Positions 45,388-53,019 of a stretch of DNA of 64,000 nucleotides are shown here, piece by piece (position 1 is the stretch's first letter; the number at the start of each line of letters is the position of its first letter). The stretch lies in the NCBI RefSeq assembly GCF_053078305.1, contig NZ_CP166879.1. One strand, written 5' to 3'. The notes beneath the pieces are model-generated. The model was given only the letters and a program-made list of their open reading frames with translations. It was not told where the DNA came from and ran no database searches. The translations under genes and the position numbers were made by a program.

Positions 45388-45753
45388 ATGGCACTGACGA
45401 AAAAACAACGCGCAGAACTGCGCATGAAGTTCGGTGGTCGCTGTGCTTATTGCGGCTGCGAACTTGGCGAAAAGTGGCATGCAGACCATGTAAAACCGGT
45501 CATTCGTTTTGATGGAAATATGCTTCACCAGGAACGTGACGATATATCCAACATGGTTCCGGCATGCCACCCATGCAATCTGCACAAGCATTGCAGTAGT
45601 CTGGAAGATTATCGGCGAATTATCAGTGATGGTCGTCGTGAATTCCTTGCGTCCGGGAAAGGCAAAGCGCTGGTTCGTATGGGATTGGTTGAAATGAAAT
45701 CTGACCCGGTTGTGTTCTGGTTTGAAAAATATCAAGAAGGGGCTACGGCATGA
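45388..45753 (+). CDS. HNH endonuclease
   Basis: Translation [26 protein letters not shown]...WHADHVKPV...[11 protein letters not shown]; AAGGAA SD upstream. Confidence 0.75.
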
Positions 45754-46094
45754 CGACTTTTACCAGAGAGCAGTTAATAGCTCACGCAGAGGAGACTATT
45801 GAAGCACAGAGACTGTGCATACCGGGCACAATCGACCATGACATCATCCGCACATATAAGATGGATATTGCTGTTCTGGAAATCGCACTGGTATCGCTGG
45901 CAGCAGAGCCAGCCGGTAAATTGCATGAATACAAACCAGTGGGATATCAGCGTCTGGTCGATGAGTTAACCATGCTGGTAAAGCAGTTAACCTGGCAACT
46001 GAGGAAAGCGAAGCCAGACTGCAAATTACCGGATAAGGCGATGAGTTATCTGGAGCGGAACGGACTGATAAGCGTGGAGGATATTTTACGATGA
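45750..46094 (+). CDS. Hypothetical phage protein
   Basis: 114-aa ORF overlapping the HNH stop. Confidence 0.5.
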
Positions 46095-46385
46095 CCTGGC
46101 CTGAAGCATTAACAACGGTAGGAATTGCGATGGCGGTGGCGCTGGTGGTGTATTCGATTTGCCGCTGGGGATAAAAACGGTTTGCGGGAAAAGGAGAGTT
46201 AAGTAGAATTGCAGCGGGTGCTTGAGGCTATCTGTCTCAGGCATGAACACCAAAAGGCAGATAGAGAAAAGCCCCAGTTAACATTACGCGTCCGGCAAGA
46301 CGCTTAACATTAATCTGAGGCTCAATCTGTGAACGGCAAATCTAGGTTAGCCTCTTACGCGCCGAAAGGCAAGGAGAAGCAGGCT

Positions 46386-46541
46386 ATGAAGCAGCAAAAG
46401 GCGATGTTAGTCGCCCTGATCGTCATCTGTATTACCGTCATTGTGACGGCACTGGTAACGAGGAAAGACCTCTGCGAGGTACGAATCCGAACCGGCCAGA
46501 CGGAGGTCGCTGTCTTCACAGCTTACGAACCTGAGGAGTAA
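46386..46541 (+). CDS. hokD: Hok/Gef-family type I toxin (HokD-like)
   Basis: Translation MKQQKAMLVALIVICITVIVTALVTRKDLCEVRIRTGQTEVAVFTAYEPEE; upstream in-frame extension corresponds to the overlapping mok frame. Confidence 0.85.
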   Translation: MKQQKAMLVALIVICITVIVTALVTRKDLCEVRIRTGQTEVAVFTAYEPEE

Positions 46542-46643: not shown

Positions 46644-46961
46644 TCAGGATATTACCTGGATCCCGTTTTTCTCGACAACTGAAAGAAGCCGAAGAGCTGC
46701 ACCTCCCGGGCGTTTCACTCCTCGTTCCCAGTCTGATATCAGGTTTTTACTGACGTTGAGGTATCTGGCAAAAACAGGTTGAGACAGATGCTCTCGTTCT
46801 CGCAGTGCACGGATCCTTTCTGGAGACATTACCGGCGCAGGCTGAAGACAAGTTTCATCGAATTCGCGCATAGTTTGTTTTGTGATTGCACCGATATCAT
46901 GGAGTGACTCCATCATTTCATGTACAGATGCAAGTGCATCACTGCGGTAATTTTTACTCAT
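46644..46961 (-). CDS. HTH (XRE family) antitoxin, HigA-like
   Basis: 105-aa ORF with C-terminal HTH (LSQPVFARYLNVSKNLISDWERG); overlaps the upstream toxin gene by 8 nt. Confidence 0.55.
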   Translation of the reverse strand: MSKNYRSDALASVHEMMESLHDIGAITKQTMREFDETCLQPAPVMSPERIRALREREHLSQPVFARYLNVSKNLISDWERGVKRPGGAALRLLSVVEKNGIQVIS

Positions 46962-47325
46962 TGGGTACCTCCGTGAACTGGCCTTGTTGAATCAATTGTG
47001 CCAGCTGTTCATCAGTAAGATTGAGGACATGGGGAGCGGCTTTTCGAAAAGCATTTTCCTCTATAGCAGTGATATTCTCTCGTTCATTCTTTGCGTATGC
47101 GTAGATGAAAAAGGCTTTTTCTGCAACGCGGTAAAAAATTATTGTCCGGTAACCGCCTGATTTTCCGCCACCACTTCGGGCTAATCTTTGTTTAATGACA
47201 CCACTACCCAAATTTGCGGATATGATCCCCTTATCGGCCAGCTCCACGATTTTGCGCAGCGATTTATCGGAAATCCGATGTTTTCGGGCGAAACGTTCAA
47301 ACCAGGCGTTTTTGAAAATTCGCAT
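46954..47325 (-). CDS. RelE/ParE-superfamily toxin, HigB-like
   Basis: 123-aa ORF with GGGKSGGYRTIIFY segment; toxin-first order typical of higBA. Confidence 0.5.
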   Translation of the reverse strand: MRIFKNAWFERFARKHRISDKSLRKIVELADKGIISANLGSGVIKQRLARSGGGKSGGYRTIIFYRVAEKAFFIYAYAKNERENITAIEENAFRKAAPHVLNLTDEQLAQLIQQGQFTEVPNE

Positions 47326-47548: not shown

Positions 47549-47776
47549 ATGCATTTCATTTCCTTTACGTCAGGAGGTGTTGTGAAAATCCCAGCCAGTT
47601 TGATCCCGGGGTTTTATGAGAGCACGCGCCCGGTTGTTGTTTACAGAAACAGTGATGGTTCTTTTCAATGTGGTTTTGTTATGCGAAGTAATGAGGTTGT
47701 TGTAAGCCTTTCTCTTCTTTCTGAGGTAAGAGAGTTGGCAGGATTACCTGTTGATGATATTCAGAAGCAGCTATAA
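47549..47776 (+). CDS. Hypothetical protein (start uncertain; alternative GTG at 47582 has an AGGAGG SD)
   Basis: Open frame from 47504; no family recognised. Confidence 0.4.
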   Translation: MHFISFTSGGVVKIPASLIPGFYESTRPVVVYRNSDGSFQCGFVMRSNEVVVSLSLLSEVRELAGLPVDDIQKQL

Positions 47777-47829
47777 AATCAGGCTGACTTGAACCGTCGC
47801 TGAGAAACACCGTGCCACCGGAGATCCCG

Positions 47830-48102
47830 ATGGCGCACGATATCAAACATCACAATTCTGATACCGGCCCTGCCAGCAGGCACGGGCGGCGTTCTCACAC
47901 ATTCAAATCTGACTGGTTCCTGCATGACCCATGCACTGAAGAACAGGCCGAATGGCTGATTCAGTGCTACCGCAGACGCGGGTATAAGTTTGAGAAAGCC
48001 CTCAGTCTTGACCGTCGCCACTGGATAATCTCCGTCAGGCTCCCTTATTCCGAACGCCCACCGCGTCCGTCCCGTACATTCCAGCAGCGCATCTGGAGGT
48101 AA
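47830..48102 (+). CDS. Hypothetical protein
   Basis: Translation MAHDIKHHNSDTG...; GGAGA SD 7 nt upstream. Confidence 0.45.
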   Translation: MAHDIKHHNSDTGPASRHGRRSHTFKSDWFLHDPCTEEQAEWLIQCYRRRGYKFEKALSLDRRHWIISVRLPYSERPPRPSRTFQQRIWR

Positions 48103-48103
48103 C

Positions 48104-49153
48104 GTGCGGGTATTACTTCGACCTGTTCTGGTACCGGAACTCGGGATGGTGCTCCTAAAGCCGGGCCGTGAATCAATGTCAGCATTCCATAACGGCAGAA
48201 TATTGGTGGAGCCGGAACCGAAAAACATGCGCGGTCTGCCGTCCGGAGTCGTTCCTGCCGTTCGACAGCCGCTGGCAGAGGATAAAACATTACTGCCATT
48301 TTTCAGCAACGAACGGGTGATTCGTGCTGCGGGTGGCGCTGGTGCACTGTCTGACTGGTTATTACGTCACGTGAAATCCTGCCAGTGGCCACACGGTGAT
48401 TATCATCACAGCGAAACTGTCATTCACCGTTACGGTACCGGCGCGATGGTGTTGTGCTGGCACTGCGACAACCAGCTGCGCGACCAGACATCAGAATCAC
48501 TCGATCAACTTGCTCAGCAGAATCTGGTTGCCTGGATGATTGACGTTATCCGTCACGCAATAAGCAGTACGCAGGAGAGGGAGTTATCGCTGGCCGAATT
48601 ATCCTGGTGGGCGGCCTGCAATCAGGTGGTGGATGCACTACCTGAGGCAGTAGCGCGTCGTTCGCTGGGATTACCAGCGGAAAAAATCCGCTCCGTATAC
48701 CGTGAGAGTGACATCGTACCGGGAGAACAGACAGCCATCAGCATACTGAAGCAGCGCACAAAAAATATTGCGCTGCCACTTCACGTCCACCAGCAACAAA
48801 ATCCACCACAGAAAAAAACGGTTGTCAGTATCGCCGTTGATCCGGAGTCTCCTGAATCGTTCATGAGGCGGCCTAAACGTCGCCGTTGGGTTAATGAGAA
48901 ATACACGCGCTGGGTAAAGACACAGCCGTGTGCGTGTTGTGGTAAGCCTGCTGACGATCCGCATCACCTGATTGGTCATGGTCAGGGGGGAATGGGGACA
49001 AAGGCCCACGATATTTTCACGCTACCGTTGTGCCGGGAGCACCACAACGAACTTCATGCAGACCCGCTGGAGTTTGAGAAAAAGTACGGCTCTCAGATTG
49101 AGTTAATTTTTCGTTTTCTTGATCACGCCTTTGCGACTGGCGTGCTCGGGTAA
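48104..49153 (+). CDS. ydfU: YdfU-like prophage protein (DUF968)
   Basis: 349-aa ORF; C-terminal CACCGKPADDPHHLIGHG...LPLCREHHNELH Cys/His cluster; same length and position as Qin YdfU. Confidence 0.55.
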   Translation: MRVLLRPVLVPELGMVLLKPGRESMSAFHNGRILVEPEPKNMRGLPSGVVPAVRQPLAEDKTLLPFFSNERVIRAAGGAGALSDWLLRHVKSCQWPHGDYHHSETVIHRYGTGAMVLCWHCDNQLRDQTSESLDQLAQQNLVAWMIDVIRHAISSTQERELSLAELSWWAACNQVVDALPEAVARRSLGLPAEKIRSVYRESDIVPGEQTAISILKQRTKNIALPLHVHQQQNPPQKKTVVSIAVDPESPESFMRRPKRRRWVNEKYTRWVKTQPCACCGKPADDPHHLIGHGQGGMGTKAHDIFTLPLCREHHNELHADPLEFEKKYGSQIELIFRFLDHAFATGVLG

Positions 49154-49165
49154 AAGAGGTGACTG

Positions 49166-49525
49166 ATGCTCATAGATTTGGTTTTACCTTACCCGCCGAC
49201 GGTGAACACTTACTGGCGACGCCGTGGCAGCACATATTTTGTATCAAAAGCAGGGGAGCGTTATCGCCGGGCAGTGGCACTTATTGTTCGCCAGCAGCGG
49301 CTGAAATTAAGCCTGTCCGGACGGCTGGCAATAAAAATTATTGCAGAGCCACCGGATAAGCGTCGTCGTGACCTGGACAATATTCTGAAAGCACCGCTGG
49401 ATGCGCTGACGCATGCGGGAGTGCTCATTGATGACGAGCAGTTTGATGAAATCAATATTGTACGTGGTCAGCTTGTTCCTGGTGGTCGGTTGGGTGTGAA
49501 GATTTACAAAATTGAGAGTGAGTGA
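49166..49525 (+). CDS. rusA: Holliday junction resolvase RusA
   Basis: 119-aa ORF MLIDLVLPYPPTVNTYW...RRRDLDNILKAPLDAL matching RusA. Confidence 0.85.
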   Translation: MLIDLVLPYPPTVNTYWRRRGSTYFVSKAGERYRRAVALIVRQQRLKLSLSGRLAIKIIAEPPDKRRRDLDNILKAPLDALTHAGVLIDDEQFDEINIVRGQLVPGGRLGVKIYKIESE

Positions 49526-50094
49526 GCGTAAATATGATATATCCGGAAATTACAGGCAAAAGCGGCGAACATTTACGCCTGAACACGCTGGAAGCAGTCT
49601 GGATCCAGGGGAAATTACGGATGTGGGGGCGGTGGTCGTATATCGGTGGGGGTAAATCCGGAAATATGTTTAACCGGTTACTGGTTTCGAAGAAGCTGAC
49701 GAAAACAGCAGTTAATGAGGTTTTACGCAGAATGAAGAAATCCGGGCTGGAAAAACCGGAACTTGAGGCATTTTTTCGGGATATGACCAGAGGGAAGCAG
49801 AAGAGCTGGTTGTCACATTGTACAGACACAGAGGCGTTGATTATTGATCGCGTTATCAGTGAGGTGCTTGGGGAATATCCCGGGCTAATCAATATTCTCC
49901 GGCAAAGGTACGAAGGACGGGGAATGAGCAAACTGAAAATGGCCGAAAGGTTAAATGCAGATCATCCTGAGTGGACGTTGGTTACGTGCAGACGCCGAAT
50001 TGATCAGTGGTTGGGGATATCTGAATTTATGTTACATGCCCCCATGCGTATGGCTTTTGTTACAGAGAAAAAAATGTTGCAAACTGATCAATAA
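49522..50094 (+). CDS. Putative late-gene antiterminator (Q-like)
   Basis: 190-aa ORF between rusA and the terminators/tRNAs; assignment by position and loose resemblance to QuuD-type Q proteins. Confidence 0.45.
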   Translation: MSVNMIYPEITGKSGEHLRLNTLEAVWIQGKLRMWGRWSYIGGGKSGNMFNRLLVSKKLTKTAVNEVLRRMKKSGLEKPELEAFFRDMTRGKQKSWLSHCTDTEALIIDRVISEVLGEYPGLINILRQRYEGRGMSKLKMAERLNADHPEWTLVTCRRRIDQWLGISEFMLHAPMRMAFVTEKKMLQTDQ

Positions 50095-50658: not shown

Positions 50659-51717
50659 ATGCTTAATACTGTAAAAATATCCAGTTGTGAGTTAATCAAC
50701 GCCGACTGCCTGGCATTTATCCGGTCGTTACCCGAAAATTCTGTTGACCTGATAGTCACGGACCCGCCGTACTTTAAAGTGAAGCCTGAGGGCTGGGATA
50801 ACCAGTGGAAGGGCGACGATGATTACCTGAAGTGGCTGGACCAGTGTCTTGCGCAGTTCTGGCGGGTGCTGAAACCTGCCGGAAGTCTTTACCTGTTCTG
50901 TGGCCATCGCCTGGCATCTGATATCGAAATCATGATGCGTGAACGCTTCAGTGTGCTGAACCATATTATCTGGGCAAAGCCGTCCGGACGCTGGAACGGG
51001 TGCAACAAGGAAAGCCTGAGGGCGTATTTCCCCGCCACAGAGCGCATTCTGTTCGCGGAACATTATCAGGGGCCGTATCGTCCGAAAGATGCCGGGTATG
51101 AGGCGAAGGGCAGGGCACTGAAACAGCATGTGATGGCCCCGCTGATTGCTTACTTTCGTGATGCGCGTGCTGCCCTGGGGATAACGGCAAAACAGATTGT
51201 GGATGCCACAGGAAAGAAAAACATGGTGTCGCACTGGTTCAGTGCCAGTCAGTGGCAGCTACCGAACGAAAGCGATTATCTGAAATTACAGGCGCTGTTT
51301 GCCCGGGTGGCAGAAGAGAAGCATCAGCGCGGTGAACTGGAAAAGCCCCACCACCAGCTGCTGGAGACGTATACTTCACTGAACCGGCAGTATGCGGAAC
51401 TGCAGAGTGAATATAAGCATCTGCGGCGGTATTTTGGCGTGACGGCGCAGGTGCCGTACACCGATGTGTGGACGCATAAACCGGTGCAGTACTATCCCGG
51501 GAAACATCCGTGCGAAAAACCGGCAGAAATGCTGCAGCAGATAATCAGCGCGAGCAGTCGTCCGGGGGACCTGGTTGCAGATTTTTTCATGGGGTCGGGT
51601 TCGACAGTCAAAGCCGCGATGGCGCTGGGGCGTCGTGCAACTGGCGTTGAGCTGGAGACTGAACGTTTTGAGCAGACGGTCAGGGAAGTACAGGATTTAG
51701 CCAGTCAGAACGGATGA
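50659..51717 (+). CDS. DNA methyltransferase (N6-adenine/N4-cytosine, DPPY type)
   Basis: N-terminal LIVTDPPYF and C-terminal FFMGSGST motifs; 352 aa with a long insert between them. Confidence 0.8.
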   Translation: MLNTVKISSCELINADCLAFIRSLPENSVDLIVTDPPYFKVKPEGWDNQWKGDDDYLKWLDQCLAQFWRVLKPAGSLYLFCGHRLASDIEIMMRERFSVLNHIIWAKPSGRWNGCNKESLRAYFPATERILFAEHYQGPYRPKDAGYEAKGRALKQHVMAPLIAYFRDARAALGITAKQIVDATGKKNMVSHWFSASQWQLPNESDYLKLQALFARVAEEKHQRGELEKPHHQLLETYTSLNRQYAELQSEYKHLRRYFGVTAQVPYTDVWTHKPVQYYPGKHPCEKPAEMLQQIISASSRPGDLVADFFMGSGSTVKAAMALGRRATGVELETERFEQTVREVQDLASQNG

Positions 51718-51757
51718 TATTGCAGTATTAGTTACGTACCGTTATTATCCTGCACCC

Positions 51758-51833
51758 GGCCCTTTAGCTCAGTGGTGAGAGCGAGCGACTCATAATCGCC
51801 AGGTCGCTGGTTCAAATCCAGCAAGGGCCACCA
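51758..51833 (+). tRNA. tRNA with CAU anticodon, ileX-like (tRNA-Ile2 lysidine type)
   Basis: Cloverleaf GGCCCTTTAGCTCAGTGGTGAGAGC...ACTCATAATCG...GGTTCAAATCC...AAGGGCCACCA; close to E. coli ileX. Confidence 0.75.
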
Positions 51834-51842
51834 TATCACATA

Positions 51843-51919
51843 CCGCCATTAGCTCATCGGGACAGAGCGTCAGCCTTCGAAGCTGGTTGCGCGGGGTTCG
51901 AGTCCTCGATGGCGGTCCA
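51843..51919 (+). tRNA. tRNA-Arg (anticodon TCG)
   Basis: Acceptor stem CCGCCAT/ATGGCGG, anticodon loop CTTCGAA, T-loop GGTTCGAGTCC, 3' CCA. Confidence 0.7.
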
Positions 51920-51932
51920 TTATCGGTATTCA

Positions 51933-52009
51933 GCGTTGTTAGCTCAGCCGGACAGAGCAATTGCCTTCTAAGCAATCGGTCACTGGTTCGAATCCAGTAC
52001 AACGCGCCA
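51933..52009 (+). tRNA. tRNA-Arg (anticodon TCT)
   Basis: Acceptor stem GCGTTGT/ACAACGC, anticodon loop CTTCTAA, T-loop GGTTCGAATCC, 3' CCA. Confidence 0.75.
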
Positions 52010-52771: not shown

Positions 52772-53019
52772 CCGGGTATCAGTCATGCCCCGAAAATTTT
52801 AAATGTCTCACAATTCAGACGGTTGACAGTTGTCTGTTTTGCGGGGAGTTTGTTAAAAGAAACTGGCATGGTGAATCCCCCTGAGCGGAGGGGCGACTGG
52901 TGCATTAGGTGTTATCTTTGATACCTAGGAAAGTGAACGCGCGGGTTTGGTTGCACCGGGCTGAACTCACCGGGAGGCACCCGGCATCATGCGCATGATG
53001 ATACAGATACGCGGCTTTA

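Follow-up and report, generated by a model that had tools for sequence, protein, structure and literature searches.

The stretch of DNA analysed here, referred to below as the window, comprises 64,000 nucleotides (nt) of contig NZ_CP166879.1 (NCBI RefSeq assembly GCF_053078305.1). It contains the distal part of the early-right (nin-like, ninR-like) operon of an Escherichia coli lambdoid prophage. Between 47.5 and 50.1 kb, five genes follow one another on the plus strand: two short open reading frames (ORF1 and ORF2), the gene of a YdfU-like protein of 349 amino acids (aa), the RusA gene, and the gene of a DUF1133/Q-like antiterminator. The first three make up a cassette that spans positions 47582–49153, lies on the plus strand throughout, and is the subject of this analysis. 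The assignment of DUF968/YdfU to the HNH nucleases has already been published, and the copy in the window is a typical member of the family. With moderate confidence, we read this protein as a zinc-stabilised nickase or endonuclease of phage recombination or replication intermediates, placed in the slot that Rap/NinG occupies in phage lambda. The features of the region are as follows:

47582..47776, plus strand: ORF1, 64 aa, phrog_31309; an optional first gene of the cassette.
47830..48102, plus strand: ORF2, 90 aa, ATG start, phrog_1212 (E = 2e-36).
48094..48106, plus strand: putative coupling junction GGAGGTAACGTG, from the end of ORF2 to the start of the YdfU-like gene.
48104..49153, plus strand: YdfU-like DUF968 protein, 349 aa, GTG start, assigned by Pfam, PHROGs and identity to K-12 YdfU.
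48104..48493, plus strand: N-terminal domain of the YdfU-like protein, residues 1–130, covered by no Pfam model.
48866..49153, plus strand: predicted C-terminal His-Me finger (HNH) domain, residues 255–349.
49166..49525, plus strand: RusA Holliday-junction resolvase gene, next in the operon (Pfam RusA, E = 3e-16).
49534..50094, plus strand: DUF1133/Q-like late antiterminator (DUF1133, E = 4e-104; Phage_antitermQ, E = 1e-7), the end of the nin-like region.

The antiterminator start at 49534 was taken from the annotation of the closest genome, NZ_CP046539.1 (L001), made by the Prokaryotic Genome Annotation Pipeline (PGAP). Prophage regions with the same annotated genes and 93–97% DNA identity were found in many E. 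coli chromosomes. In NZ_CP046539.1, the closest relative (96.9% identity), the annotation gives the DUF968 gene (805203–806253; L001 9701–10751) as a pseudogene with a frameshift, whereas the gene in the window is intact.

A sequence-only reading of this DNA had described a 349-aa YdfU-like protein with a Cys/His cluster, preceded by two small ORFs on the same strand, and all of this is borne out. Purifying selection, estimated from the ratio of nonsynonymous to synonymous substitution rates (dN/dS), acts on the three genes, so they are real protein-coding genes. The dN/dS value is 0.11 for ORF1 compared with a 77%-identical copy, with synonymous sites close to saturation; it is 0.16–0.31 for ORF2 in pairwise comparisons with five diverged copies and 0.10–0.34 for the YdfU-like gene at the same loci.

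The YdfU-like protein is 85% identical to YdfU of E. coli K-12 (b1560) across all 349 residues. The sequence-only reading had suggested a search with HNH and DUF968 profiles. In this search, the Pfam DUF968 model (PF06147) matched residues 160–346 over its whole length (profile positions 1–171 of 171) with 259.4 bits (E = 2e-77), above the gathering cut-off of 27.8 bits, which places the protein in this family. The match to HNHc_6 (PF16784), at residues 271–320, was below threshold. Membership in HNHc_6 is defined by a gathering cut-off of 26.6 bits and a NinB/Orf-like N-terminal domain, and the YdfU-like protein does not belong to it. Among the PHROGs, phrog_96, annotated as “HNH endonuclease”, covers residues 1–348 (E = 2e-174). 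No match to NinG (PF05766), YbcO/DUF1364 (PF07102) or RecA_dep_nuc was found in Pfam, and neither NCBIfam nor PADLOC gave a useful match for the protein.

The Cys/His cluster CACCGKPADDPHHLIGHGQGGMGTKAHDIFTLPLCREHHNELH occupies residues 276–318 (nt 48929–49057). In the AlphaFold2 model of the protein, which has a mean predicted local distance difference test score (pLDDT) of 85.8, strands 285–288 and 306–309 and helix 311–319 form a beta-beta-alpha unit. Both features looked for in a His-Me finger are present, namely the fold of a beta-hairpin and an alpha-helix and the pair of a general-base His with a metal-binding His/Asn in the helix. From the model, a His-Me finger fold (HNH, beta-beta-alpha-metal) is predicted for the C-terminal 95 residues, and we have high confidence in this nuclease fold. 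We propose C276, C279, C310 and H313 as zinc ligands (CxxC...CxxH), and H288, H314 and H318 as the catalytic or metal-binding residues, which would make a full, intact set. A family alignment was built from 31 full-length homologues of 26–79% identity, found among 1.8 billion representatives, and the residues proposed for catalysis and zinc binding are conserved over this range. H288, H314 and H318 are kept in 80–87% of the approximately 94 representatives that cover the region. Some homologues swap the cysteines jointly (e.g., CVITG...LHADEH) and retain the histidines.

The sequence-only reading had seen in this cluster a metal-binding, possibly nuclease-related motif, and DUF968, phrog_96, the fold model and the alignment with Gp16 of phage phiNM1, considered below, support this view. 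It had also called the family uncharacterised, which is true of wet-lab work on YdfU; however, the family was classified in 2017 (PMC5714182), and the homologue Gp16 was characterised in 2026 (PMC12817073). Jablonska et al. (2017, PMC5714182) assigned DUF968, along with DUF1364/YbcO (3G27), to group 7 of the His-Me finger superfamily, naming YdfU and noting the RusA and Q neighbours, and proposed a recombination role for the DUF968/DUF1364 group.

Gp16 of the Staphylococcus aureus phage phiNM1 was reported in January 2026 to be a RecA-dependent nickase (PMC12817073). It has a CxxC/CxxH zinc site (C145, C148, C181, H184) and a nuclease centre formed by H157, H185 and H189, and mutations of the zinc-site residues abolish its effect (PMC12817073). 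Gp16 is an HNHc_6 protein (E = 5e-117) that also scores above the DUF968 cut-off, with 29.1 bits. The YdfU family profile aligns to Gp16 with an hhalign probability of 95% (E = 3e-8), and the “LCREHHNE.H” stretch is identical in both. In this alignment, C145, C148, H157, C181, H184, H185 and H189 of Gp16 correspond to C276, C279, H288, C310, H313, H314 and H318, respectively, and the spacing is nearly equal: H288 is 22 residues from C310, and H157 of Gp16 is 24 residues from C181. Gp16 and the YdfU-like protein are each encoded among the early DNA-metabolism genes of a temperate phage, and both phages have a RusA gene as well. The YdfU family differs in having neither the NinB-like domain of Gp16 nor the N-terminal segment of P1 Ref.

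Three further systems were compared. YbcO (DUF1364, PF07102, PDB 3G27; DLP12 / phage 82) aligns to the YdfU family profile with an hhalign probability of 83% (E = 9e-6). It is a bare HNH protein of 96 aa with a CxxCH...D motif, whereas YdfU has CxxHH...H and also contains an N-terminal domain of 130 residues, a helical segment and a disordered linker. The best structural match is P1 Ref (PDB 3PLW), although its sequence match is not significant (E = 0.43). PMC4330346 and PMC3973344 describe Ref as an HNH enzyme that depends on RecA and cleaves D-loops; it differs from YdfU in its N-terminal region, and its gene in P1 lies outside any nin-like operon. Lambda Rap/NinG (PF05766), which is specific for branched DNA and is described in PMC5714182 as a structure-specific endonuclease of recombination intermediates, belongs to the same superfamily and occupies the same slot between the ORF2-family/NinB genes and Q. 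Its sequence matches only locally, over 18 columns around CxxC...H (hhalign probability 6%, E = 0.006).

The position of ORF2 links the YdfU-like gene to this slot. One base separates the TAA stop codon of ORF2 from the GTG start codon of the YdfU-like gene, within the conserved sequence GGAGGTAACGTG, and the Shine-Dalgarno sequence of the nuclease gene is embedded in the last codons of ORF2. The junction is identical in the window, in four diverged prophage copies and in K-12, and in every copy read it is unchanged whether rem, hokD, a cytosine methyltransferase gene or ORF1 lies upstream. Judging by this arrangement, ORF2 is translationally coupled to the nuclease gene. 

The sequence-only reading had left the two small ORFs without a known function. 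Indeed, neither has a match in Pfam, NCBIfam, the PDB or PADLOC; however, each falls into a PHROG family (phrog_31309 for ORF1, phrog_1212 for ORF2). The phrog_1212 core of about 66 aa lies at ORF2 residues 25–90, and the family consensus over core and tail is W-F-x-H...T-x-x-x-A-x-x-L...Y-R-x-R-G...D...L-P...P-R-P-S-R-x-x-Q-Q-R-I-W. The Pro/Arg-rich tail of the ORF2 family (...PRPSRxxQQRIW; window 48040–48099) is kept with NinG, YbcO or DUF968 downstream. Since this conservation is at the protein level and persists despite the differing downstream gene, it is not due to the overlapped ribosome-binding site, and the tail may be a short interaction peptide. Two identities considered for ORF2 were rejected: it has no similarity to K-12 Rem, at which the annotation of one phage record had hinted, nor to the lambda nin proteins NinD, NinE and NinF.

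An intact 92-codon ORF2 homologue was also found in K-12 MG1655 directly upstream of ydfU (NC_000913.3, 1644306..1644584, minus strand; L002 4307–4585). It has the same GGAGGTAACGTG junction, and the RefSeq table lists no feature at this place; an identical protein is annotated in strain 300709 (WP_012304870.1). The K-12 Qin prophage resembles the window in the position of ydfU before a Q-like antiterminator, in the ORF2 homologue upstream and in the identical junction. It differs in the loss of RusA and in carrying rem, hokD and relBE instead of ORF1 and the RelE/ParE-family module.

Matches to ORF2 joined to the start of DUF968 are present in 4528 of the 5426 complete E. coli genomes, frequently at more than one place in a genome, Shiga-toxin prophages included. 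The DUF968–RusA order recurs in E. coli prophages, RusA being the next gene in most copies read. In other enterobacterial phages, a 66-aa short form of ORF2 stands between NinB/Orf or YbcN and a nuclease gene, which is followed by RusA and is YbcO in mEp237 and phiES15, and is NinG in SPN3UB, Edno5 and Klebsiella phage 5; PY54 and one Enterobacter phage depart from this arrangement. With the short-form protein of mEp237, 80 loci were retrieved from IMG/VR, their neighbours were typed by tblastn, and the Pfam identities of neighbouring genes were checked. Directly downstream was NinG in 61 loci and YbcO in 18 (followed by RusA in 17), with NinG after an inserted gene in the remaining one, and NinB was upstream in 77 of the 80; these loci are closely related (74–100% identity), so the counts are not independent. 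Thus, the ORF2 family is a small gene that holds its place directly upstream of three His-Me nuclease families: NinG, YbcO and DUF968. NinG occurs without RusA, and YbcO and DUF968 usually occur with it. This pattern and the constant position of ORF2 support the functional equivalence of the slot with that of lambda Rap/NinG.

The N-terminal part of the YdfU-like protein (residues 1–160) has no sequence match in Pfam or the PDB; phrog_11007 spans residues 2–135. It contains a conserved cluster, CQWPHGDYHHSETVIHRYGTGAMVLCWHCDNQLR, at residues 93–126 (nt 48380–48481). All 31 sequences of the family alignment have C93, C118 and W119, at least 90% of them keep Q94 and D122, and positions 101 and 121 are Cys or His in every one, giving the consensus C-Q-x6-[CH]-H...L-C-W-H-[HC]-D-N. 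The conserved Cys/His positions 93, 101, 118 and 121 therefore make a candidate four-ligand zinc site; no conserved His was found at the expected general-base position. An AlphaFold2 model of the domain alone, built from an alignment without C-terminal sequence (pLDDT 90.9), has a hairpin at 105–118 and a helix at 119–125. We lean slightly towards an HNH-derived origin of this domain, which would make it a candidate second, degenerate zinc module. Two results speak against such an origin: a Foldseek search with the domain model found nothing significant, and the sequence-profile comparisons of the domain were not significant, though the motifs align in register.

In several representatives (P0126, P0146, P0155, P0172, P0184–P0186, P0239), the first 150–300 residues of a YdfU-like protein are joined in frame to tail-fibre, tip-attachment J, portal or capsid domains. 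Real fusion of the N-terminal domain to these partners was rejected, and the cases were read as recombined or mis-assembled prophage junctions. They most likely stem from recombination or mis-assembly among several lambdoid prophages residing in the same genome.

ORF1, although rare, is a genuine gene. The sequence-only reading had begun it, and with it the cassette, at ATG 47549, and this start needs correction. GTG 47582 and a GGAGG sequence 4 nt upstream of it are both kept in three lineages, ATG 47549 is missing from two diverged lineages, and PGAP annotates the same 195-nt, 64-aa ORF1 coding sequence with the GTG start in the closest genome. The left edge of the cassette is therefore moved 33 nt downstream to 47582, and ORF1 probably has 64 aa rather than 75 aa. 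Its protein forms only eight clusters, from E. coli and Salmonella, and full-length matches are present in 166 of the 5426 complete E. coli genomes; a tblastn search of phage genomes gave no match. Wherever the context was read, ORF1 lies directly upstream of ORF2–DUF968–RusA.

Several other elements surround the cassette. An unrelated second HNH gene, 121 aa from its ATG (45388–45753, plus strand; Pfam HNH PF01844, E = 3e-6), lies 2.4 kb upstream, and its end is overlapped by a 114-aa ORF without a Pfam match (45750–46094, plus strand). Other prophages (L015, L017, L018) have this pair upstream of their cassette as well. It is followed by a hok/sok type I toxin-antitoxin module (46216–46541, plus strand), with the Rfam sok match at 46216–46391 (109.7 bits) and a 51-aa Hok ORF at 46386–46541. 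The space between hok and ORF1, which in K-12 Qin is taken by relBE and rem, holds a type II toxin-antitoxin pair on the minus strand (46644–47325), in which the RelE/ParE-family toxin gene (46954–47325) overlaps the gene of the helix-turn-helix (HTH) antitoxin (46644–46961). Downstream, a 352-aa DNA methyltransferase ORF and three tRNA genes (51758–52006), annotated as Ile, Arg and Arg in the closest genome, occupy 50659–52006 on the plus strand, and a match to the small RNA family STnc100 follows at 52837–53000 (plus strand). Stx-type lambdoid prophages typically show this methyltransferase–tRNA–STnc100 arrangement downstream of Q. An Rfam scan detected no RNA family within 47549–49153, and a promoter and terminator scan around the cassette gave counts not above the shuffled expectation.

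Our interpretation of the YdfU-like protein places it on recombination intermediates because its slot is shared with Rap/NinG. During lytic growth, the gene would be read through from the early promoter as a part of the early-right transcript. K-12 ydfU is preceded by a strong Rho-dependent terminator (PMC9160355) and would presumably be silent in the lysogen. The protein would bind DNA and, with one catalytic divalent metal, nick or cut branched intermediates such as D-loops that arise as the phage replicates by recombination. It would act before RusA, which would then resolve Holliday junctions, so that the two enzymes would together do the job of the single HNH enzyme Rap/NinG; the slot would be filled by NinG alone, by YbcO with RusA or by DUF968 with RusA. 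Taken as a claim of its own, judged from relatives and context, activity as a nuclease on recombination or replication intermediates appears marginally favoured.

Several observations weigh against this interpretation. Beyond the fold, everything in it derives from relatives and gene position. PDB sequence searches with the YdfU-like protein gave nothing significant, and the literature search found no experiment on YdfU or any YdfU-type DUF968 protein, nuclease and toxicity assays included. Some homologues are without the HH or the zinc residues and the closest genomic copy is frameshifted, which suggests that the function is dispensable in resident prophages. In K-12 Qin and in strain 300709, ydfU is followed straight by the antiterminator, with no RusA. 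The synteny of ORF2 and the nuclease genes may stem from where the modules of mosaic phages meet and not from a functional partnership. Finally, RecA dependence need not transfer to YdfU, since it has neither the NinB-like domain of Gp16 nor the N-terminal segment of Ref.

Some extensions of the proposed mechanism are held less firmly. RecA filaments may target or stimulate the enzyme, because Ref and Gp16, its best relatives with biochemistry, depend on RecA; by analogy with them, RecA dependence of the YdfU-like protein is possible, though on the unlikely side. Residues 1–130 may serve DNA or partner binding as a second HNH-like zinc module that has lost catalysis, and ORF2 may be an accessory factor; that ORF2 is a physical partner of the nuclease is a tentative suggestion to which we give still less weight. 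More speculative yet is a “two-headed” His-Me enzyme, in which the dead N-terminal module (C93, C/H101, C118, C/H121) would target the active C-terminal HNH domain to RecA-made D-loops or branched DNA, ORF2 would be the third component, and the whole, together with RusA, would be a multi-part alternative to Rap.

Of the rival explanations, a host-takeover nuclease, which would nick and condense the host chromosome and arrest its replication, as is reported for phiNM1 Gp16, survives best; it is unlikely, and it is partly compatible with a role on phage intermediates. Expression of Gp16, the nearest homologue to have been characterised, inhibits growth and replication of the host (PMC12817073), and the terminator of K-12 ydfU is among the strong Rho-dependent ones said to suppress toxic prophage genes (PMC9160355). 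However, toxicity of YdfU is not reported in the literature found, and the fixed place between NinB/ORF2 and RusA points to the phage’s own DNA transactions.

It is improbable that the protein is a DNA binder or regulator without catalysis, in which the HNH fold serves just as a zinc finger. One family member is annotated as a transcriptional regulator (quoted in PMC5714182), the homologues that have lost the HH or zinc residues would fit, and the N-terminal module resembles a degenerate HNH; yet H288, H314 and H318 are all present here, as they are in about 80–87% of the representatives, and the catalytic residues are identical to those of the active nickase Gp16.

We rate two other possibilities lower still and about equally. 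A selfish homing-type HNH endonuclease would spread by cutting related phages that lack it. Mobility is frequent among HNH genes, the slot is a mosaic one that holds different nucleases (NinG, YbcO, DUF968), and the unrelated PF01844 gene lies 2.4 kb upstream. Nevertheless, the gene is not in or beside a conserved target gene; it has the canonical operon position, appears coupled to ORF2 and is under strong purifying selection over deep divergence, DUF968 is the sole HNH model above its curated cut-off, and Pfam detected no further DNA-binding domain. A nuclease expressed in the lysogen for defence or superinfection exclusion would fit the moron-like toxin-antitoxin modules nearby (hok/sok and the RelE/ParE-family toxin with its HTH antitoxin). 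Against this, the only PADLOC match of the YdfU-like protein, to PglZ (E = 0.087, 9 bits), is not meaningful and does not assign it to a defence system, the cassette is preceded by no promoter signal above background, K-12 ydfU lies behind the strong Rho-dependent terminator, and the position is that of the nin genes of the lytic cycle.

A terminase-associated HNH protein for cos cleavage or packaging, like HK97 gp74, is highly improbable: HNH proteins are common in phage packaging machines (background cited in PMC12817073), but this gene is not adjacent to a terminase gene and stands after the early region, ahead of the Q-like antiterminator and of the methyltransferase, tRNA and lysis genes.

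The nuclease of phage recombination or replication intermediates thus remains our preferred reading, and the analysis makes several small additions to the published assignment. ORF2 keeps its synteny with nuclease genes of three families, the N-terminal domain is a candidate for another HNH-like module, the protein is linked to Gp16 and Ref, and the start of ORF1 is corrected. The unannotated ORF2 homologue of K-12 MG1655 is a small gain in annotation. The ORF2–DUF968 pair is common, occurring in most E. coli genomes and also in Shiga-toxin prophages. A genome-wide association study of Irish Shiga toxin-producing E. coli listed a ydfU variant (odds ratio 4.3) among the accessory genes associated with haemolytic uraemic syndrome (PMC11950266); this association probably reflects linkage to the Stx2 prophage. 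The 2026 work on Gp16 and the older work on P1 Ref suggest RecA-stimulated nicking as a question for YdfU-type proteins, and the ORF2 family and the unannotated candidate N-terminal zinc domain provide specific handles for its study.

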